Assembly (NCBI GenBank): GCA_964461505.1
Contig: CAYWUW010000003.1
Span: forward strand, 37,680-101,679
Length of the DNA: 64,000 nucleotides
DNA from: an uncultured Candidatus Saccharibacteria bacterium
Lineage (GTDB): Bacteria; Patescibacteriota; Saccharimonadia; Saccharimonadales; HK-STAS-PATE-42
Direction: 5' to 3'
The notes under the pieces were generated by a model. The model did no database searches. It saw only the letters and a list, made by a program, of their open reading frames with translations, and was not told the origin of the DNA. Of the stretch, positions 2,429-57,893 are shown piece after piece (positions within the stretch are counted from its first letter, which is position 1; the number at the start of each line of letters is the position of its first letter). The translations under genes were made by a program, and so were the position numbers.

Positions 2429-2454
2429 CTTAAGTTTAGTATAGCACTCGCCTT

Positions 2455-2489
2455 CTCTGTCGTCCTGAGCAAAGTCGAAGGCTTTCTGC
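2455..2489. repeat. Hairpin repeat, GTC(A/G)TCCTGAGC...GAAGG family
   Basis: ctctgtcgtcctgagcaaagtcgaaggctttctgc. Relatives at 11639-11685, 12786-12823 and 36425-36452. Confidence 0.6.
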
Positions 2490-2499
2490 ACAATTAAGC

Positions 2500-3408
2500 T
2501 TAGGCTAAAGCTTTGCCTTCGGAGCCGAAAGCGCGGATTTTTTCTTCGATAACCTCTTGAGTTGCGTCGTTGACTTGTTCCATTAATTTCATTACAGAAA
2601 ATTCGGCCGGATTATCTGCGAGGGCTTTTTCTAAGGCTTGACGGTGCGCAATGCGCACATCGGTATTAATATTGATTTTGGAAACTCCGATTTTGGCGGC
2701 TTCTTCAAAATAGAAGAGTGGCGTTCCGGAACCTCCGTGCAGGCTAACGGAACATGGCAAAGCGTTGCAAACTTCTTGCAGTAAACTTAAGTTTAGTTGT
2801 TTTGGGGCTGGATATGAGCCGTGAAGGTTTCCAACAGAGGCGGCAAAGATGTCGATATCGGTGTCATGAACGAATTCTAGAGCCGTTTTGGGGTCTGAAA
2901 AGTTCTTTTTAACTTCTTCGTAATCAATTTGTTCATCGTGGAGGTTAGAGCTTCCGGCAAAATAATGCATCTCGCTTTCTACTATAGCGCCGGTAAACCG
3001 GGCGTATTCGGTAACTTGTTTGGTTTTTTGAATGATTTCTTCTAGCGGAGCGGAATGATCTTTTTGAGAAATATCAATATGAACAAACTCAAAGCCGATA
3101 TCGATAGCCTCTTTGGCAAGCTTGACAGAAGGGCCGTGATCTAAATTGAGATAAACTTCGACGCCATATTCATCTTTATAATTATCAACAAGATCGCGGG
3201 CGTTTTCTAGGCCAATGGAATCTGCCTCTGATTCGCTAAGATTAATTATAACTGGAGCCTTAAGCTTAGCGGCGGCTTTGATAATAGAAATGAGGATGTC
3301 TTGGGAATCGATGTTAAACGCCCCCACGGCAAATTTTTGTTGATGAGCGCGCAGCATTAGCTGTCTAGCTTTAGAGGTTGAAGCGCGAATTTGTTTTAGA
3401 CTAGCCAT
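2500..3408 (-). CDS. fba: Class II fructose-1,6-bisphosphate aldolase
   Basis: FAVGAFNI.., LNLDHG, SLHGGSG blocks typical of class II (FbaA/KbaY) aldolases. 302 aa. Confidence 0.85.
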   Translation of the reverse strand: MASLKQIRASTSKARQLMLRAHQQKFAVGAFNIDSQDILISIIKAAAKLKAPVIINLSESEADSIGLENARDLVDNYKDEYGVEVYLNLDHGPSVKLAKEAIDIGFEFVHIDISQKDHSAPLEEIIQKTKQVTEYARFTGAIVESEMHYFAGSSNLHDEQIDYEEVKKNFSDPKTALEFVHDTDIDIFAASVGNLHGSYPAPKQLNLSLLQEVCNALPCSVSLHGGSGTPLFYFEEAAKIGVSKININTDVRIAHRQALEKALADNPAEFSVMKLMEQVNDATQEVIEEKIRAFGSEGKALA

Positions 3409-26531: not shown

Positions 26532-26888
26532 TTAAGAGATTAAGTCTTCTATTTCAACTGATTCAATAGTTTTCCAGCCTAAAAACTTTGGGATTCTTTG
26601 CTTCTGAACTAAAACGCGCCTACCTTTGATAACACTGGCGAATTGACTTAACGGGTAATTGCGCCTCATTTGCTCATCAGGACTCTCTGTACCTGGTAAT
26701 ACTTGCCTATATCCTACTTCAGGTAATCCTGCGATATCTGTAGCGATATTTCCTAAAACTCCCTGTCCAGGTCTTTGATCACCAACCCAATGAACAGTTG
26801 TTTCTTTCTTACCGAAGTCGGCTGCAGGGCCGCCATCATTTAGGTATGTAGTATCTTGCGTTATAGCTCTAAAATTTGTCATACCCAC
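26532..26888 (-). CDS. Hypothetical protein
   Basis: 118-aa ORF. Confidence 0.4.
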   Translation of the reverse strand: MGMTNFRAITQDTTYLNDGGPAADFGKKETTVHWVGDQRPGQGVLGNIATDIAGLPEVGYRQVLPGTESPDEQMRRNYPLSQFASVIKGRRVLVQKQRIPKFLGWKTIESVEIEDLIS

Positions 26889-36522: not shown

Positions 36523-37548
36523 TTAGTCTCTTAGCCCAACGGCTTTTTGAACTTTTTGTAGTGTTTGATCTGCAACTTCTCGCATTTTTTGTTCGGAAGA
36601 TTTAAGCTTAGCTTCCAGAACATTCTGATCTACCTTTTGAAAATTATCTTGGAGTTCTGTAAGAGTTTTTTCTACGGCAGCAGCAACTCTTTTTTTAAGT
36701 TCGCCATACTGAGTTTGGCCGACGAATTCTTGATTAACTTGAGCTTGAGTTTTTTGTTCGAGAAGAGCTAAGAGCACGAGCAGATTGGTGATTCCGGGTT
36801 GGTTAAGCTTATCAAAATTGATTTTGCCAACACTGTCGGTTGTGGCGGAGATGACTTTTTTGGCAGCGAGTTTTGGATCGTCAAATAAAAGAATGGTTCC
36901 GTTTGGATCTTTTACGGATTTGCTCATCTTTTTTTGAGGATTGGTTAAGCTCATGATTCTAATTGAATCTTGCTGCCCGGCGAATTCAACTTGTTCTTTA
37001 ATTTCTGCCGGAGCTTGAAAGACATCTCCGAATTTATTGTTAAACCTTTCGGCAAGATCTCGTGTGAATTCTAGATGTTGGCGCTGATCTTCGCCCACGG
37101 GAACGTATTTTGCGCCGTAAAGCAGCATATCTGCCGCCATTAAAACTGGGTAATCAAAGAGCCCGGCTGAGACGAACTCTACGTCTTTTCGCTCGGCTTT
37201 ATCTTTAAATTCAGTCATTCTAGAAAGAACTCCAAAACTGGCAAAGTTATTTAAGATTATGGCCAGCTCGGAATGTGTGGAGATTCTGCTTTGGCGGTAA
37301 AGTTCAACGTTTTTTAAATCAATTGGTAATCCGGCCGCCACAAAAAGCCGCAGATTCTTGATGCTGTTTGCGTAAAGATTGTTGTGATCAACGGGAGTTG
37401 TGAATGAATGGAGATCGGGCACAAAAAGTGCGACCTGGTAATCTTTTGATTTTTGATGAGCCATCTTAATTAGAGGTTGAATCGCGCCAAGGTAATTTCC
37501 GAGAGTTAGCTCATCATTACAGCGGATTCCAGTTAAAATAGTTTGCAT
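36523..37548 (-). CDS. trpS: Tryptophan--tRNA ligase (core copy)
   Basis: MQTILTGIR..LTLGNYLG (HIGH-like), KMSKS present. An alternative start at 37575 would add 9 aa. Confidence 0.9.
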   Translation of the reverse strand: MQTILTGIRCNDELTLGNYLGAIQPLIKMAHQKSKDYQVALFVPDLHSFTTPVDHNNLYANSIKNLRLFVAAGLPIDLKNVELYRQSRISTHSELAIILNNFASFGVLSRMTEFKDKAERKDVEFVSAGLFDYPVLMAADMLLYGAKYVPVGEDQRQHLEFTRDLAERFNNKFGDVFQAPAEIKEQVEFAGQQDSIRIMSLTNPQKKMSKSVKDPNGTILLFDDPKLAAKKVISATTDSVGKINFDKLNQPGITNLLVLLALLEQKTQAQVNQEFVGQTQYGELKKRVAAAVEKTLTELQDNFQKVDQNVLEAKLKSSEQKMREVADQTLQKVQKAVGLRD

Positions 37549-37622
37549 AGTATTTTTTCTTTCTAATCCATCCATGGCCCTGGCAAAGATGGATCTTAAT
37601 TATTTAAGTTTGATTATAGACT

Positions 37623-37650
37623 AAAAAACCTCCGTGGTAAGTAGCGGAGG
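37623..37650 (-). terminator. Intrinsic terminator within the trpS leader (attenuator)
   Basis: Minus strand CCUCCG-CUACUUACCA-CGGAGG followed by UUUUUU, about 50-75 nt upstream of trpS. Confidence 0.65.
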
Positions 37651-37680
37651 TTAAAATTAAGATTTTATTTAATACAAAAA

Positions 37681-37743
37681 CTAAGAGCTACTTACCAAAA
37701 GCCAAGTAGTGTTCCAGTATAGAGCTGTATTAAAAATTAACAT
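37681..37743 (-). CDS. Candidate 20-aa leader peptide MLIFNTALYWNTTWLLVSSS (two Trp codons)
   Basis: ATG 7 nt downstream of a TATACT -10 box. TGG codons at 37716-37714 and 37704-37702. The ORF covers the antiterminator arm. Confidence 0.55.
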   Translation of the reverse strand: MLIFNTALYWNTTWLLVSSS

Positions 37744-37750
37744 GATTTAA

Positions 37751-37779
37751 AGTATATCAGCTTATTAAGCTTAAGTCAA
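37751..37779 (-). promoter_or_regulatory. Sigma-70-like promoter TTGACT-17-TATACT for the trpS leader
   Basis: Read directly on the minus strand. The -35 overlaps the tyrA stop codon. Confidence 0.6.
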
Positions 37780-38496
37780 ACCATCTAGTTTATCTCGGAG
37801 TTTATCTACGTGGTTGGCGAATTCATCACGAACTTTTTGGGCGTATGGGTTATCTTTATGAACAGAATCTATGAGTTCCCTGCTTTCGATTTCGGCAACC
37901 TTGCTTAAGCTTAGTAATTTTGTAAAAGATGGAGTCGTAATGCCATGTTCTTCGAGTTTAAACGGAGCGAGAGTTTCGGAAACAAAGAAGGTTAGAGCAT
38001 GCGTGTAGGCCATAGCTTGATCATGCTCTGCGGCCGTCATCTGAATGATGTTCAACTTAAGTTTAGCGCCACAGTATTCAAGAAGACTTTCGGCGAGAGC
38101 TCCATTGAATTCGCAAACGATTAATTTAAGATTTTTTGTGGATTTTTTGGCGGATTGTGGGCCAAATAGCGGATGCGTAATAAGCAAGTTATGGTGAGCC
38201 GGAAGTGCATTTTTGATGAGTTCTAGCGGTTTAAGCTTAATAGAACAAACATCTACCAAAAGAGATTCTTTTTTAAGATATGGTTTAAGTTCTTTAAGAA
38301 CTTTTGGGTAAGCATTAAAAGTGACGGAAAGAATTACAATATCTGATTTAAAAACTTTAAGACGCTCTTCTTCGCTAGAATCTCGCCCAATCATCTTAAT
38401 TTCAGAAGCGTAACTTTTAAAAAGCTTTGCTAAGAGCTTGGCAAAGCTCCCTCTTACGATTATTCCAATGGTTGGTTTTTTATCTTTTTTTAACAC
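37771..38496 (-). CDS. tyrA: Prephenate/arogenate dehydrogenase family protein
   Basis: N-terminal Rossmann-like IGIIVRGSFAKLL, LITHPLFGPQS (THPMFGP motif). GTG start. Confidence 0.7.
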   Translation of the reverse strand: MLKKDKKPTIGIIVRGSFAKLLAKLFKSYASEIKMIGRDSSEEERLKVFKSDIVILSVTFNAYPKVLKELKPYLKKESLLVDVCSIKLKPLELIKNALPAHHNLLITHPLFGPQSAKKSTKNLKLIVCEFNGALAESLLEYCGAKLKLNIIQMTAAEHDQAMAYTHALTFFVSETLAPFKLEEHGITTPSFTKLLSLSKVAEIESRELIDSVHKDNPYAQKVRDEFANHVDKLRDKLDGLT

Positions 38497-38660
38497 TTTT
38501 GATTATTATTTATTGCTTATTGTTGATTTTTGCTTGTCTTGCTTGATTGGTGTAAGGTCTAACTCGTTCTGAATCTTTTCTAATATTATATAAGAAAGGC
38601 CCGGAGATTGCGCGCCTCTTGCTTAAGCTTAGAGGATGAGCGTAAAGAAGTTTGTTAAGC

Positions 38661-39242
38661 TTAAGTTAAACTTGGGGCGAGACTTGGGGCAAGTTCTTCT
38701 GCGCCGACAATTCTACATGTTACTGGGCCGAGCAGCACTGCCGGGGCTTGGCTAGGATTAACATTAGGTAGAGTCGTGCCTGAGAATTTAAGGAACGGTG
38801 CCTCTTCAGCGGGTACGAAAGAGCAGCCTAGAGGATCAGCTTCTCTTCTAGTTAAGCCCAGACCATTAAGCTGCCCAGAATCTTGTCTCCCGAGTACTAA
38901 TGTACCAAAGCCACGGCTTAGCTTAAGTTTAGTTGCCGGAAATAGAACTTCGCCACGAGCACGAACAAGTTCGAAAGCAGATACGATGGCTCCTAACATG
39001 TCTTCTAGGTCGACATGGGCACCACGAGATGACATTATCTTCAAAAAGCGTTCGCGATCTTGCTCTCCTCTAACCACTCCCATTAGAAACTCAACGGGAG
39101 GTTTTTTGAAAACCTGACCTAGAGATCTTGCGCGTCCTTTTTGACCATGCGGATATTGATAGTGTTCTGGTAACTCTAGAACTGGCCTAGAAATTACTAG
39201 ATCTTTTGGTTCGAGTGTTTTTGGTGCTGAGTTTCTTGCCAT
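38661..39242 (-). CDS. Hypothetical protein (orphan inside a direct-repeat-flanked insertion)
   Basis: 193-aa ORF. No family recognised. A 113-aa antisense ORF also exists. Confidence 0.4.
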   Translation of the reverse strand: MARNSAPKTLEPKDLVISRPVLELPEHYQYPHGQKGRARSLGQVFKKPPVEFLMGVVRGEQDRERFLKIMSSRGAHVDLEDMLGAIVSAFELVRARGEVLFPATKLKLSRGFGTLVLGRQDSGQLNGLGLTRREADPLGCSFVPAEEAPFLKFSGTTLPNVNPSQAPAVLLGPVTCRIVGAEELAPSLAPSLT

Positions 39243-39298
39243 AAAGATATAATTATAGCAGATATATACTCTCTAGTCTAGCTTAAGCTTAGGTGATG

Positions 39299-40555
39299 CT
39301 AGAGGATGAGCGTGGCGAGACCGAGGAATGCCATAAAGCCTAGAACGTCGGTTCCAGTTGTAATAAAGATTGTGGCGGAGCTGGCCGGATCTTTGCCGAG
39401 GCGCTTCATAACAAGCGGAACGATTGTTCCGAACAAGGCGGCAACAATTAAGTTTATGACCATAGCCAGAGCCAAAACGATGGCTAATCTAACATCGTGA
39501 TCTTTAGCCAAGACGATAGCGGCGACCAAAAAGCCGTTGATAAAACCGTTGATTAAGCTGGCTCCAACCTCATTTTTGAGGGTTTTGAAAAATGATTTTA
39601 AGCTAACTTGGCCAAGAGCGATTCCACGAACCATAACAGCCATAGTTTGAGTGGCGGCGTTTCCACCCATTCCGGCAACTATTGGCATGTAGACTGCGAG
39701 CAAAACAAATTTAGAGATTGTTCCTTCAAAAAGCCCGACTGTGAAGGCTGCTAAAAATGCTGTTGCAAGATTAATAATTAACCATTTGTAACGGAACGAA
39801 ACTTTGGCTTTGATAGGATCTTTAACGCCTTCTTCTTGGCGAACTCCGGCAAAATCGTAAAGGGAGGCGGATTCACTTTTTTCCATAGCTTGCAGAACAT
39901 CATCAGAATAGATTATTCCCGCAACTCCATTATCATCCATCACAACAACTTTGTTATGCGGGTGAGTTTGAAAAAGTTCTTCAACCTCTTTTTGGGTTGC
40001 TGTTTTATGGATGGTGGCGATTTTTTTAACAAGCTTGCCAACTTTTTCGGATGATCGATTTAAGCCTAGTGCAGCGCCAGGAAGGTGCCCAACAAGTTGG
40101 CCTTCTTTTAGAACTAGCGTTACAGGAATTTTTCCGGTTCGCCTTTCGTGAAGCTTAATTTTTTTAGCGGTATGTTCGATGTTGTCGCCATCATCAACCT
40201 GAACATAGTTCACACTCATCAAAGCAGCGGCAGAATCTGATTCTAAGTAAAGCAGATCTTTAACTGCGTTTTGTAAATCTTTACTAAGTTTTTTGATGAT
40301 TGTTTTGCGGCGGCGCGGGCCAAAAAGATGGAGGATGTCGGTGGCATCATCAGGATCTAGCTTTTCGAGAATAGCCATCAAAGAATCTTCTGAAAGATTG
40401 GTAACGATATCTTTTTTTGTGGGCTTAGTTTGGCTGGCTAGAATTGCAATCTGCGTTTCAAGATCTTGTTCTTTAAAAATTTTGAGGCGATGTTTGGAAT
40501 TTATTGCAACCTCTTTACTAATTGCAAAAAGCTCGGCCGATTCTTTAAAGTTCAT
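39299..40555 (-). CDS. mgtE: Magnesium transporter MgtE
   Basis: MgtE N-domain, CBS pair, C-terminal TM domain ...MGGNAATQT..., TDVLGFMAFLGLA. Confidence 0.9.
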   Translation of the reverse strand: MNFKESAELFAISKEVAINSKHRLKIFKEQDLETQIAILASQTKPTKKDIVTNLSEDSLMAILEKLDPDDATDILHLFGPRRRKTIIKKLSKDLQNAVKDLLYLESDSAAALMSVNYVQVDDGDNIEHTAKKIKLHERRTGKIPVTLVLKEGQLVGHLPGAALGLNRSSEKVGKLVKKIATIHKTATQKEVEELFQTHPHNKVVVMDDNGVAGIIYSDDVLQAMEKSESASLYDFAGVRQEEGVKDPIKAKVSFRYKWLIINLATAFLAAFTVGLFEGTISKFVLLAVYMPIVAGMGGNAATQTMAVMVRGIALGQVSLKSFFKTLKNEVGASLINGFINGFLVAAIVLAKDHDVRLAIVLALAMVINLIVAALFGTIVPLVMKRLGKDPASSATIFITTGTDVLGFMAFLGLATLIL

Positions 40556-54225: not shown

Positions 54226-55227
54226 TTACGAACCGTATAACCGCATTGCTTTTCTTACTTCTGCCATAGTTTCATTGACTACTTGTCTTGCCTTAGTGGT
54301 TCCGTCTTCTAGAATATTTTTTACTAGATCTGGCTGTAGCTCATATTCTTCTCGCCTTACACGGATTGGTTCTAAAAACGTATTAAGTACGTCCACCAGG
54401 TACTGTTTGACCTCAATGTCACCAACTTGACCATTGCGATAACGTTGCTTAAGAGCCTCGGTGGTTTTTTTATCAGTACCAAAAGCGTCGAGATATATAA
54501 ATACTGGGTTACCTTCTACCTTACCAGGATCAGTTGTGCGTTGACGTGTTGGATCGGTATACATTTTCATGACCTTTGTCTCAACTTCATCATGACTATC
54601 TGATAAGTAGATAACGTTGCCTAGACTTTTACTCATTTTTGCACTACCATCTGTACCCACCAACCGTGCAATACGTCCAGTCAGGATTTCTGGCATATTG
54701 AAAGTATGGCCATATATTGTATTAAACCTATTAACGACTTCACGAGTTAATTCAACCATTGGCGCCTGGTCATCACCAGCCGGAACTAAGTCAGCGTTAA
54801 AGCCTAATATGTCTGCTGCTTCAGATAATGGGTAATTTACAAAGCCTACGGGAACATTTGCACCAAATCCCTTTTGCTTCATCTCCGATTTAACAGTAGG
54901 ATTACGTTGCAAACGCGCAAGACTGACTAAATTCATAAAATATACAGTAAGCTCAGCGAGCTCTGGAATTTGTGATTGCACAAATAGAACTGCTTTACTT
55001 GGATCTAATCCAACCGCTAGGTTGTCCAGGGCAACTTGATAGACACTTTCACGAACTTTATCAGGATTGTCAAAATTGTCCGTAAGGGCTTGAACATCAG
55101 CCTGCATGATAAATGTTTCGTATTCATCTTGTAGCTTCACTCGGTTCTCCAGCGTCCCTATATAGTGGCCGAGGTGCAATTTACCCGATGGTCGGTCACC
55201 AGTTAAAATTCTCTTTCTCGTATTCAT
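54226..55227 (-). CDS. trpS: Tryptophan--tRNA ligase, second (auxiliary) copy
   Basis: ILTGDRPSGKLHLGHYIG (HIGH), KMSKS. 333 aa with AGGAG SD. Confidence 0.9.
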   Translation of the reverse strand: MNTRKRILTGDRPSGKLHLGHYIGTLENRVKLQDEYETFIMQADVQALTDNFDNPDKVRESVYQVALDNLAVGLDPSKAVLFVQSQIPELAELTVYFMNLVSLARLQRNPTVKSEMKQKGFGANVPVGFVNYPLSEAADILGFNADLVPAGDDQAPMVELTREVVNRFNTIYGHTFNMPEILTGRIARLVGTDGSAKMSKSLGNVIYLSDSHDEVETKVMKMYTDPTRQRTTDPGKVEGNPVFIYLDAFGTDKKTTEALKQRYRNGQVGDIEVKQYLVDVLNTFLEPIRVRREEYELQPDLVKNILEDGTTKARQVVNETMAEVRKAMRLYGS

Positions 55228-55826: not shown

Positions 55827-57406
55827 GGTTCACTCCTAACATACATTGGTCGAAATGCTGCAAGACGTTTGCCCTTGTCATCTCCAAATACAGCTGCGTC
55901 CCTATTAAAAGGCACTGCTCGTAAGTATATGCTCGACACATCTATTCCAGCTTTTCGGCTCCTTTCCACAGCATTTGATAACTGGGCAAAGCTGTGTAGT
56001 GAATAGCGAAAAAGTGGCACTGGTGTTTTTTGGCCAGGTACAAATGCATACAAAATATCGGTATCCGACGGAACCTTGCCTAGTTCCAACATCCTGAACA
56101 ATTCTTCGTGAATCCTTGGTGCATTATCTTTATCGATTTTCTTAGGACGAATCAAGTTCAGTAATTTATCCAAATGTCGCCCTGCTACTTGGAACGTTGG
56201 AAGTGTTGTTGCCTCGTGTTCAAATACTTTTAACAGCGGGTCTGGGAATGTGGAAATATCGGCTCTCACTACTTTTTCTGTAAACGCAGCATACCCTCCT
56301 GATTCAATGTCAGGGTTTAGTACGATTACACTTGTATCGTCTGTAATTGCATCGTATTGAGAAATACCAAGAACAGTAACTTTGAAGCCAATTTTTTCTA
56401 ACATTGAGGTTAGTGATTTTGTCTCATTTACCTCAAGCATATCGGTAGAACTTTCCAGTGACTCGTCTTTAACAATAATGGTTATATGGTCTGTTGCTAT
56501 ATGCTTTTCGATGGCTACCCCCACCTGTGCCTTTAGCTTTTCTACTATCTGAGCAACTTGTTCAAGTGGCCGATTTTTAGCTCTCTCTATCTCAGTCAAA
56601 AAGAATCCAACATCAGGCATGTTTATCCTTTCGATAGCAACATTTTCGTCAGTATCAACGAAGCAGTCTGGCTGAAAATATAGTAAATCATCAGCTATGC
56701 CTTGAGGGGACTGAGGGTCTCGAGCAGCAAGAGCAATAGCCTGCCGAAATGGTACTCCTGCTTTGATATGCTGGCGTGCCACAAAAGCATAGGATCTCAC
56801 ACGCATCAAAGCCTCTTGCACGGCTGGTTGAGTATCGGCAGAAAGCACTGCTCCAGTTTCAACTGGATTAATCAGGAAAAAACCACTTCTGCTACCAACA
56901 GCTGTATCCGGTAGTTTGACACCTTTTTCTTCAGCTTGTTCCACAAACTCATTCATAAGGCCAAATGTTTTTCCTAAATTATTTTCTGCATAAGCTGCTG
57001 TTACAGACATTGCTAACACACCAAGTTCTGGGTGTTCAGCTATACCCTCTTTGACGCTCTCTTCTAACAAAGCATGTGGAACTGGCGCTGATACCTCAAA
57101 CGAGCCTTGTTGAGCAACAGATCTATCAACAGTAAAAGCTGTAAAATTACCACCAGGACCTTGGTCCATTCTCAGGAACCGATATAATCCTGCGCCTCGT
57201 AACCTTTGCTTAAGTTCAGGTCCAACGCTCGGAAAGAATGCTGCCCTTAGCTCAGCAGGTGAGTTTTCACGAAGTGACATAAAATTTTCGTATGCCTTAA
57301 ATTCATCATTACCATTTATCATCGGATCTGCCGCTTCATAATATGTATCCATACTGCCTGCAGCCATTTTTACTCTTCCACCTTCTGCTATTTCAAATTC
57401 ACTCAT
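55823..57406 (-). CDS. Hypothetical 527-aa protein, no recognisable family
   Basis: Long ORF with GGAG SD; first gene after the attenuator. Confidence 0.6.
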   Translation of the reverse strand: MSEFEIAEGGRVKMAAGSMDTYYEAADPMINGNDEFKAYENFMSLRENSPAELRAAFFPSVGPELKQRLRGAGLYRFLRMDQGPGGNFTAFTVDRSVAQQGSFEVSAPVPHALLEESVKEGIAEHPELGVLAMSVTAAYAENNLGKTFGLMNEFVEQAEEKGVKLPDTAVGSRSGFFLINPVETGAVLSADTQPAVQEALMRVRSYAFVARQHIKAGVPFRQAIALAARDPQSPQGIADDLLYFQPDCFVDTDENVAIERINMPDVGFFLTEIERAKNRPLEQVAQIVEKLKAQVGVAIEKHIATDHITIIVKDESLESSTDMLEVNETKSLTSMLEKIGFKVTVLGISQYDAITDDTSVIVLNPDIESGGYAAFTEKVVRADISTFPDPLLKVFEHEATTLPTFQVAGRHLDKLLNLIRPKKIDKDNAPRIHEELFRMLELGKVPSDTDILYAFVPGQKTPVPLFRYSLHSFAQLSNAVERSRKAGIDVSSIYLRAVPFNRDAAVFGDDKGKRLAAFRPMYVRSEP

Positions 57407-57420
57407 AATATTTCTCCTTT

Positions 57421-57451
57421 AAAAATTAAAAGACTCCCTTCCCGGGAGCCC
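57421..57451 (-). terminator. Intrinsic terminator in the operon leader (attenuator)
   Basis: Minus strand GGCUCCC-GGGAA-GGGAGUC followed by UUUUAAUUUUU, immediately before the AAAGGAG SD of the 527-aa gene. Confidence 0.65.
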
Positions 57452-57480
57452 TAAGTTACATTTATTCAAAATTTTACAAC

Positions 57481-57561
57481 CTAAATAGACTCCCGTGTGT
57501 AATGAGAGCTACGCCAAGCACCTAGTTCACCACAACTAACTAATAATTCAATATGACTCAT
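57481..57561 (-). CDS. Candidate 26-aa leader peptide MSHIELLVSCGELGAWRSSHYTRESI (one Trp codon)
   Basis: The ATG overlaps the trpR-like stop (ATGA) with GAGGA 7 nt upstream. TGG at 57516-57514. The last codons cover the antiterminator arm CGGGAGUC. Confidence 0.5.
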   Translation of the reverse strand: MSHIELLVSCGELGAWRSSHYTRESI

Positions 57562-57815
57562 AATTGCTTCCTCAAAACTTTGAAACGATCCTGACTTAGT
57601 TCTTTCGAGCCACGGGTAACCGTAGCAACTCCTACCCCAAGATCACTAGCAATTCTAGCCTGTGGTTCACCGGCAATTAATCGCTTGATAATCTCTACTC
57701 GTTGAGCTATTTCAGCACGTTCTTTATCGGTTGTCACACCAATTAGAAAGTCCTCAAGCAGCGCTCTATCTCGAGTAGCGTATATAATATTGATTACGTC
57801 ACCAAAATTTGACAT
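57558..57815 (-). CDS. Trp repressor family protein (TrpR / YerC-YecD type)
   Basis: ..TTDKERAEIAQRVEIIKRLIAGEPQARIASDLGVGVATVTRGSKEL aligns with the E. coli TrpR helix-turn-helix (..GIATITRGSNSL). Confidence 0.8.
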   Translation of the reverse strand: MSNFGDVINIIYATRDRALLEDFLIGVTTDKERAEIAQRVEIIKRLIAGEPQARIASDLGVGVATVTRGSKELSQDRFKVLRKQL

Positions 57816-57821
57816 AGCTAT

Positions 57822-57850
57822 ATACTAGCATACTAGTACGTTAGTGTCAA
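57822..57850 (-). promoter_or_regulatory. Promoter TTGACA-17-TAGTAT overlapped by a TrpR-operator-like palindrome
   Basis: Minus strand GTACTAGTATGCTAGTAT matches the E. coli trp operator GTACTAGTTAACTAGTAC at 14/18 positions with the same CTAG-N4-CTAG spacing. The ATG is 6 nt after the -10. Confidence 0.55.
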
Positions 57851-57893
57851 TACATTTCTAGATTTTTGTGATTATTTATTTGCTGTTCTTGAG

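Follow-up and report, generated by a model that had tools for sequence, protein, structure and literature searches.

In the window, a 64,000-nucleotide stretch of DNA from an uncultured Candidatus Saccharibacteria bacterium (G+C = 41%), we identified a leader element directly upstream of trpS, the gene for the housekeeping tryptophanyl-tRNA synthetase (TrpRS). The element combines a promoter, a 20-codon open reading frame (ORF) with two Trp codons and an intrinsic terminator whose loop is complementary to a segment within the ORF. On comparative sequence evidence we consider it probable, and hold with fairly good confidence, that the element senses charged tRNA-Trp by ribosome-mediated transcription attenuation through a leader peptide; it appears to be a new member of the class of leader-peptide attenuators. 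With somewhat less confidence, we expect its present contribution to the expression of trpS in this genome to be material. All features of this study are on the minus strand, and those that make up the element and its target gene are as follows.

37779-37623, minus strand: whole leader element.
37774-37779, minus strand: -35 hexamer TTGACT of the distal promoter (P1), overlapping the stop codon of the upstream prephenate dehydrogenase-like (PDH-like) gene; TTGAC is invariant in 11 aligned copies.
37751-37759, minus strand: extended -10 of P1, TGaTATACT, after a 17-nucleotide (nt) spacer from the -35; TGnTAnnnT is conserved in relatives.
37681-37743, minus strand: leader ORF, MLIFNTALYWNTTWLLVSSS and a stop, 20 codons, with the ATG at 37743, 7 nt after the -10.
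37714-37716, minus strand: Trp codon 10, the proposed sensing codon.
37704-37702, minus strand: Trp codon 14, partly inside region 1.
37703-37709, minus strand: region 1, CUACUUG, which takes in some of Trp codon 14; with region 2 it forms the putative anti-antiterminator.
37687-37697, minus strand: region 2, UGGUAAGUAGC, partner of region 1 or region 3.
37635-37645, minus strand: region 3, GCUACUUACCA, the last base of the terminator 5' arm and the entire loop, the putative antiterminator partner of region 2.
37623-37652, minus strand: intrinsic terminator, AACCUCCG, a 10-nt loop and CGGAGGUU, running into a U6 tract at 37628-37623.
36523-37548, minus strand: trpS, 341 amino acids (aa), Pfam tRNA-synt_1b (E = 4e-51).

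The decisive argument is comparative. A protein search delimited a clade of TrpRS orthologues at 69-98% identity, followed by a gap to 62%, and the DNA was fetched for each contig. TrpRS scans of genome and metagenome contig collections yielded few loci, mostly outgroups at 55-58% identity that lack the element. When a covariance model built from 11 copies was run against all fetched loci (given here by their L numbers), the element turned up in 12 distinct lineages with scores of 98-130 bits, the window having a single copy. This recurrence rules out chance. An earlier note on this DNA, made from the letters alone, had reckoned with the possibility that the small ORF and its pairings would be missing before trpS in close relatives; instead they are kept in the 12 lineages, and L009/10 lack the element. 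The arrangements found were these.

Element directly before trpS: the window, L001, L012/13 and L016/17.
Element, then an orphan gene that we refer to as geneX, then trpS: L011, L024, L018/19, L020 and L027/28.
Element, then geneX, on a contig that ends just past geneX with trpS not visible: L025/26.
Element, then a racemase-like fragment, then trpS: L015.
Element, then a PDH-like gene, then trpS: L007.
No element: L009/10 (82% identity) and the outgroups at 55-58%.

The genes upstream of the element vary, including those for a PDH-like protein, MgtE (L018, L020 and L007), a membrane protein (L001) and a divergent prephenate dehydratase (L012), as well as a recombinase region. The gene shared downstream is trpS, at most one gene away (the L025 contig stops before it).

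P1 scored 10/12 in the promoter scan, with the TG present. The distance from TTGAC to the ATG is 36 nt in 11 copies and 35 in L001, which places the ATG 7 nt past the -10 (6 in L001). Two ordinary genes of the window, the TrpR/YerC-like gene at 57815 and a 116-aa gene at 26882, have the same promoter-to-ATG geometry, both with 6 nt and with equally good promoters. As the leader ORF and two ordinary genes all have an ATG 6-7 nt after the -10, leaderless initiation is plausible in this organism, and from the same spacing the leader mRNA is plausibly leaderless.

Two Trp among the 19 non-start codons of the leader would be expected with P of about 0.016, given that Trp makes up 1.03% of residues in 20 genes of the window. 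Across relatives, Met1, Trp10 and Trp14 are invariant in 12/12 lineages and Thr13 is found in 11/12, and all other leader positions are variable. The ORF ranges from 14 to 20 codons in the 12 lineages, ending anywhere from right behind Trp14 (L018) to six codons further on. The reading frame over region 2 is not constant among copies, and in L012 one extra base shifts the frame there. The codons around Trp10 differ (UAC UGG AAC, ACU UGG CGU, AAC UGG CAA and others) while UGG itself is fixed, and thus UGG10 is conserved as a codon and not as part of a helix. To judge from this comparison, the pattern of fixed Trp codons in an otherwise free peptide is the signature of a regulatory ORF rather than of a functional peptide.

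A repeat finder reported regions 2 and 3 as complementary at 11/11 positions, the terminator stem (AA)CCUCCG / CGGAGG(UU) around its 10-nt loop, and a competing hairpin CUACUU/AAGUAG of 6 bp, or 7 bp with one G-U pair. The terminator hairpin is missing from the consensus terminator scan because that scan accepts loops of 3-8 nt only. The earlier note had described a consensus promoter (TTGACT-17-TATACT), a two-Trp ORF of 20 codons starting 7 nt after the -10, an 11-bp complementarity between 37697-37687 and 37645-37635 whose target is the loop plus one stem base of CCUCCG-N10-CGGAGG-U6, and pairing of the segment around the second Trp codon with region 2; each of these was recovered on the minus strand as described.

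The 121-nt leader transcript folds at -27.8 kcal/mol (z = -3.6), and 0/200 shuffles fold as well. In the window, the 2:3 duplex has an energy of -16.3 kcal/mol, compared with -6.9 for helix 1:2 and -8.1 for the hairpin of the terminator. Without a ribosome, the minimum free energy (MFE) fold is the 1:2 hairpin plus the terminator in 7/7 copies folded, and the RNAalifold consensus of these seven copies is the same. In the 11-copy alignment, 96.6% of cells are paired for helix 1:2 (7-8 bp, all changes wobble-compatible), 92% for the terminator helix (6-7 bp) and 99.1% for helix 2:3 (10 bp).

No covariation was found among the first 7 copies, in which all helices are invariant. Regions 2 and 3 are almost invariant in 10/11 aligned copies, G-C/G-U changes aside; at the sequence level such near-invariance is uninformative on pairing, yet it is unusual for a terminator loop. 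In the divergent lineage L025, region 2 reads GGCAAGUGGC instead of GGUAAGUAGC, and region 3 is altered at both matching positions (U-A to C-G and A-U to G-C). Region 1 of L025 is constrained in sequence by the ACU UGG codons, and G-C and G-U pairs still join it to the altered region 2. For the 2:3 helix with its compensatory pairs, 4/500 column shuffles match the observed values. Computational folding and covariation in relatives, which the earlier note had named as a check, thus gave the same default fold in all seven copies folded and two compensatory pairs, both in L025.

Helices 1:2 and 2:3 both use region 2, and 1:2 overlaps the Trp14 codon. In L025, region 3 overlaps the terminator 5' arm (CUCCGCCA-CUUG-UGGCGGAG), and thus antiterminator and terminator compete directly there. 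In the window, region 3 and the terminator stem have one base in common, and the overlap is 1-2 nt in most copies; on stereochemical grounds, a 6-bp stem should not be able to close over a 10-nt loop that is fully paired and has no linkers. The three mutually exclusive structures of the earlier note therefore stand as regards 1:2 and 2:3, which share region 2, and as regards 2:3 and the terminator they are direct in L025 and sterically argued elsewhere.

The effect of a stalled ribosome was modelled in seven leaders by forcing everything to be unpaired up to 12 nt past the first base of the A-site codon. With the mask at Trp10, helix 2:3 is the MFE structure in 5/7 full-length leaders and in 7/7 nascent transcripts ending at the loop. 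With the mask at Trp14, which hides half of region 2, the terminator is the outcome in 7/7. This footprint geometry places Trp10 as the sensor. Trp14 is modelled as belonging to helix 1:2, and stalling at this codon would be of no use. The exception is L007, where the loop is 12 nt longer and region 2 escapes the footprint at Trp14.

In the mechanism that we propose, RNA polymerase would start at P1 and make a transcript with its 5' end at or next to the AUG, a predicted leaderless mRNA on which a 70S ribosome would load at once. When Trp-tRNA is plentiful, the ribosome would pass Trp10 and Trp14, reach the stop codon and cover region 2; after its release, region 1 would pair with region 2. 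In either state the CCUCCG/CGGAGG-U6 hairpin would form and transcription would end at about 37623. When Trp-tRNA is scarce, the ribosome would halt with Trp codon 10 in the A site, burying region 1 and leaving region 2 free to capture region 3, the terminator loop, through 10-11 bp once the loop is made. Without linker nucleotides, the 2:3 helix would be incompatible with a closed terminator stem, and the polymerase would continue into trpS. Most likely, read-through is confined to a shortage of charged tRNA-Trp. The analysis shows the sequence elements with their conservation, pairing potential and thermodynamics; we infer where transcription starts, that the ORF is translated, that 2:3 and the terminator exclude each other sterically, and that the element responds to Trp.

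The read-through transcripts would add to those from a proximal promoter of trpS itself, which lies partly within the terminator.

37613-37640, minus strand: proximal promoter (P2), TTACCA-16-TATAAT, with the -35 in the terminator loop (37635-37640) and the -10 at 37618-37613; scan score 10/12.
37566-37594, minus strand: stem-loop AUCCAUC-N15-GAUGGAU in the trpS 5' untranslated region (UTR), between P2 and the ribosome-binding site (RBS) and outside the switch.

The motif (TG)TATAAT-CAAACTTAA precedes trpS in all aligned members of the clade, including the element-less L009, and in some geneX loci it overlaps the geneX stop codon. In the outgroups too, a -10 box lies a few bases ahead of where trpS starts. 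As trpS keeps its own promoter past the terminator, the attenuator would be a second, conditional input over a basal level. The idea of an attenuator of the E. coli trp type on trpS, put forward in the earlier note, thus gained support from conservation in relatives and from ribosome-mask folding, and it needs amending: P2 makes the attenuator an additional input and not the sole promoter, the sensor is placed at Trp10 and not Trp14, and in basal relatives geneX is the first regulated gene, with trpS behind it. In the 5' UTR, a stem-loop occurs in the same place in L012 (UCCUCC/GGAGGA) and L015 (AUCCAUC/GAUGGAC), and L011, L016, L018 and L020 are without the insert.

Several observations weigh against attenuation of trpS as we describe it. 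The Trp codons are four codons apart, and in the model a stall at Trp14 would favour termination; the conservation of Trp14 could be explained instead by its part in helix 1:2. In L012 and L018, which have 7-bp stems, the terminator stays thermodynamically favoured despite the Trp10 mask. Outside L025, the exclusivity of 2:3 and the terminator follows from steric reasoning, as the folding program bars pseudoknots by construction. The covariation comes from that single divergent lineage, and the remaining 10 copies say nothing either way. P2 is conserved downstream of the terminator, and the share of read-through in trpS expression could be small. Finally, the leader has moved laterally together with geneX as one cassette, and the window's copy could be what remains of it.

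This last point bears on the strongest rival explanation, which is based on P2. The element may have evolved for geneX, and after the loss of geneX in the lineage of the window it would make only a short, terminated transcript upstream of P2, with P2 alone driving trpS. In a neighbour-joining tree of TrpRS proteins, the basal branches have the arrangement element-geneX-trpS, and geneX-less loci occur in at least three subclades. The last geneX codons (TCTACTGTATAA) remain after the terminator in L012 and L016, and P2 is conserved everywhere. Between L011:431-2526 and L024:696-2790, the leader and geneX share 96% DNA identity and the adjacent trpS 75.5%, from which we infer a recent lateral exchange of the leader-geneX cassette between lineages, independent of trpS. 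By eye (no scan was made), the geneX relatives have no promoter-like sequence between the terminator and the geneX RBS, and geneX would then depend on read-through, a point in favour of attenuation. A tblastn search for geneX in the window found nothing. Against a mere relic, at least three subclades without geneX, whose TrpRS identity has fallen to 75-87%, still have the complete element, and P1, the ATG spacing, W10, W14, regions 1-3 and the terminator are preserved in every geneX-less copy despite divergence of the peptide. Two sister pairs without geneX, the window with L007 and L001 with L016, have kept all functional features while their leader peptides diverged, which argues for selection on the element before trpS. 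In L007 and L015 the element was retained before other genes that are followed by trpS, and nothing between terminator and trpS would block read-through. We regard this relic reading as unlikely.

It is quite unlikely that the unit is a stand-alone gene for a trans-acting small RNA (sRNA) and/or a small peptide, like rnTrpL / peTrpL of Sinorhizobium, with no cis effect on trpS. Such a gene would account for a unit with its own promoter and terminator next to a gene that has a promoter too, regions 2 and 3 could serve as seeds through their invariant 10-nt sequences, and attenuator-derived sRNAs have a precedent (PMC6614838). Nevertheless, the unit always lies just before trpS or before a gene followed by trpS, occurs once per locus and nowhere else in the window, and encodes a peptide that is unconserved beyond its Trp codons. 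Its conserved stretches are not merely conserved, they are complementary to one another, and a trans role would be compatible with a cis role. Sensing without a ribosome, whether by uncharged tRNA in the manner of a T-box, by a TRAP-like protein, or by TrpRS binding the loop as an anticodon-arm mimic of the thrS type, is very improbable. The terminator loop is unusually conserved, its last three bases in the window are CCA, which is the Trp anticodon, and UGG occurs in region 2; in relatives, however, the loop CCA is replaced by ACCG, ACUG, ACUC or UGUG, and we rejected the tRNA-mimic reading of the loop on this ground. The conservation of the loop is fully explained by its pairing with region 2, compensatory changes included, and sensing of this kind would leave the fixed ATG and W10 unexplained. 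TRAP needs 9-11 spaced (G/U)AG repeats, and the leader has only a few such triplets. At the gathering threshold, Rfam matched only three tRNAs in the whole 64-kb window, with no T-box (RF00230) and no Trp_leader (RF00513). Searching the leader at E<=10 returned only four sub-threshold chance matches, to ohsC, a CRISPR direct repeat, PsrR1 and Phe_leader; the last, the only leader family among them, reached 17 bits against a gathering score of 55. Membership in the T-box and Trp_leader families was accordingly rejected, and the absence of T-box features reported in the earlier note holds at both thresholds. There remains the reading that the hairpin, 120 nt past the PDH-like stop codon, is an ordinary terminator of that gene, with the small ORF and the complementarities arising by chance in an AT-rich spacer; for a lone 20-codon ORF with two Trp, the P value given above is after all not extreme. 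The comparative data refute this reading and leave it next to no probability, as the unit has its own promoter, scores as given above in the 12 lineages with W10 and W14 invariant, and recurs behind unrelated or divergent genes (the membrane protein gene in L001, the divergent prephenate dehydratase gene in L012, and MgtE in L018, L020 and L007). Attenuation by a translating ribosome thus remains the reading that we prefer for the element.

The geneX loci, all outside the window, suggested a further possible response to Trp. Their positions are as follows.

L011:620-1469
L024:886-1735
L018:651-1470
L020:1469-2309
L027:~2462-3310
L025:~2432-3265

Five of them (L011, L024, L018, L020 and L025) have an RBS and an ATG followed by a frame-0 ORF of 28-36 codons, which ends in YEVP..PSGR(S/L)LWRx and a stop in four loci and in DYRTAPSPSGKLLWRR and a stop in L025. 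The conserved body of geneX continues in the +1 frame, and in L011 that frame has no start codon ahead of the conserved residues. By our own reading, L027 has the same start, frame-0 sequence and junction, with frame 0 seven codons longer before its stop. The junction CUU_UGG_CGA is found in all six loci. At a distance of 3 nt it is preceded by the Shine-Dalgarno-like stretch GGGAGG, which reads GGGAGA in L020 and is lacking in L025. Just before the junction, L018 and L020 differ by changes (CCA/CCC and AGG/AGA) that are synonymous in frame 0 and non-synonymous in +1. The stretch that holds the candidate frameshift site reads GGGAGGUCACUUUGGCGA.

From these sequences, the geneX body appears to need a +1 frameshift like that of prfB at CUU_UGG_C, with Trp as the slow A-site codon. 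The prfB frameshift site is CUU_UGA_C with an internal Shine-Dalgarno sequence, and the geneX site resembles both parts, with a Trp codon in the slow A-site place. It also resembles CUU_AGG_C, the frameshift site of yeast Ty1/ABP140 (PMC5009743), again with a Trp codon at the A site. According to a 2016 review of recoding, natural regulatory use of hungry-codon frameshifting was unclear (PMC5009743). If the geneX site is real and Trp-responsive, it would be a natural bacterial programmed frameshift that reads the level of an aminoacyl-tRNA. We treat it as a lead and not a result, and it concerns relatives and not the window. That Saccharibacteria have a two-tier system sensing Trp-tRNA through the ribosome, with the leaderless two-Trp attenuator here and geneX with its Trp-codon +1 frameshift in sister lineages, is an idea that we hold tentatively and consider slightly more apt to be wrong than right.

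The geneX protein is rare, with 7 clusters among 5.8 billion proteins and 5 matches in a profile search of 1.84 billion representatives. It has no Pfam family, a comparison with PDB sequence profiles gave nothing meaningful, and alignment with the TrpRS profile (hhalign) gave a probability of 0.4%, with no sequence similarity. Foldseek matched an AlphaFold model (predicted local distance difference test, pLDDT, 74; predicted template-modelling score, pTM, 0.77) weakly but consistently to the catalytic domains of TyrRS/TrpRS, to cyclodipeptide synthases and to isonitrile synthases (E about 1e-3; template-modelling (TM) scores of 0.43-0.57). The modelled fold thus weakly resembles class-Ic aminoacyl-tRNA synthetases, cyclodipeptide synthases and isonitrile synthases.

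The nearest relatives of the window are metagenome-assembled Saccharimonadales (Candidatus Saccharibacteria, TM7). The true start of trpS is MQTILTG at 37548, and 341-aa homologues begin at the same Met. A second, divergent TrpRS is encoded in the window at 54226-55227, with 27% identity to the trpS product. It is the last gene of an operon, and upstream of this operon (57406-57860, minus strand) we noted several features. An 85-aa TrpR/YerC-like gene starts 6 nt after TTGACA-17-TAGTAT, a leaderless-type geometry, and behind it are a 26-codon ORF with one Trp and then a hairpin, GGCUCCC-GGGAA-GGGAGUC-U4, for whose 5' arm the upstream CGGGAGUCU could compete. In a single fold of this region, the MFE structure is the terminator and the centroid is the alternative (z = -0.98).

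The upstream neighbour of the leader element is the following gene.

37771-38496, minus strand: PDH-like gene (prephenate dehydrogenase N domain).

Homologues of aromatic-amino-acid enzymes (PDH-like and prephenate dehydratase) are grouped with trpS in the window (37771-38496), L007:790-1494, L012:158-1213 and L016:1-843. The genomes with such clusters are reduced, and in L007 the Trp attenuator sits before the PDH-like gene itself. Between MgtE and the PDH-like gene of the window is an unannotated 193-aa gene (38661-39242), a homologue of which adjoins the PDH-like gene in L015. On either side of it, at 38620-38665 and 39275-39320 (minus strand), is a near-repeat, ACGCTCATCCTCTA...AAGCTTAAGC, and CTTAAGC-type motifs are repeated at promoters and gene ends around 38620-39320. 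The near-repeat could be the scar of an insertion, or else a motif with a regulatory role.

Saccharibacteria live as ultra-small, host-dependent episymbionts, with most of amino-acid biosynthesis missing. To our knowledge, how they sense nutrient supply is largely unknown, and a full-text literature search for Saccharibacteria together with attenuators returned nothing relevant. If our reading is correct, this element would give the Candidate Phyla Radiation its first described leader-peptide attenuator, and Saccharibacteria would monitor charged tRNA-Trp by means of a translating ribosome, on a leaderless transcript, with an antiterminator that attacks the terminator loop. The element is short and sharply defined, which suits it to heterologous systems, and a covariance model for it exists.

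Known systems resemble the element to different degrees. In Firmicutes, trpS is usually controlled by a T-box riboswitch (RF00230). The regulated gene, the signal (tRNA-Trp charging) and the output (terminator versus antiterminator) would be the same here, whereas the element has no specifier loop and no T-box sequence and would sense through translation and not through direct tRNA binding. Leaderless short ORFs are also known from mycobacteria, where polycysteine ORFs of the Cys 'ribulon' control translation by unmasking an RBS (bioRxiv 10.1101/834739). There, and as predicted here, a leaderless short ORF lies at the 5' end of the transcript and pausing at the codons of one amino acid reshapes the RNA downstream; unlike the mycobacterial case, the element has a canonical intrinsic terminator, and control of transcription is therefore most likely.

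Among attenuators of synthetase genes, pheM-pheST of gamma-proteobacteria is a leader-peptide attenuator, and Vecchione and Sello reportedly showed in J Bacteriol in 2010 that the auxiliary trpRS1 of S. coelicolor is subject to ribosome-mediated attenuation. In Streptomyces, attenuators have been predicted upstream of trpS/trpS2 and leuS (PMC1262725). The element would share with these the use of classical attenuation on the synthetase of the sensed amino acid, and the window too holds a second, divergent TrpRS. It differs in belonging to another phylum (Saccharibacteria/Patescibacteria), in its unrelated sequence, in its apparently leaderless start and in its loop-directed antiterminator, and the copy that would be regulated here is the housekeeping TrpRS with broad orthologues.

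The closest parallel in design is the E. coli trpL attenuator (RF00513). Both have a short ORF with two Trp codons, the first at codon 10, and downstream an intrinsic terminator with a U-tract; in both, 1:2 forms the anti-antiterminator and 2:3 the antiterminator, and here too the position of the ribosome would select the fold. The two have no sequence or covariance-model similarity, and here the target is an aminoacyl-tRNA synthetase rather than a biosynthetic operon. Further, the leader mRNA is apparently leaderless, the Trp codons are not adjacent but spaced by four codons, the part of region 3 is taken by the terminator loop with 1-2 stem bases instead of the 5' arm, and a second promoter lies between the terminator and the gene. 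Noteworthy in this predicted attenuator are its apparently leaderless start, Trp codons that are set apart from each other, an antiterminator directed at the loop, and an internal promoter.

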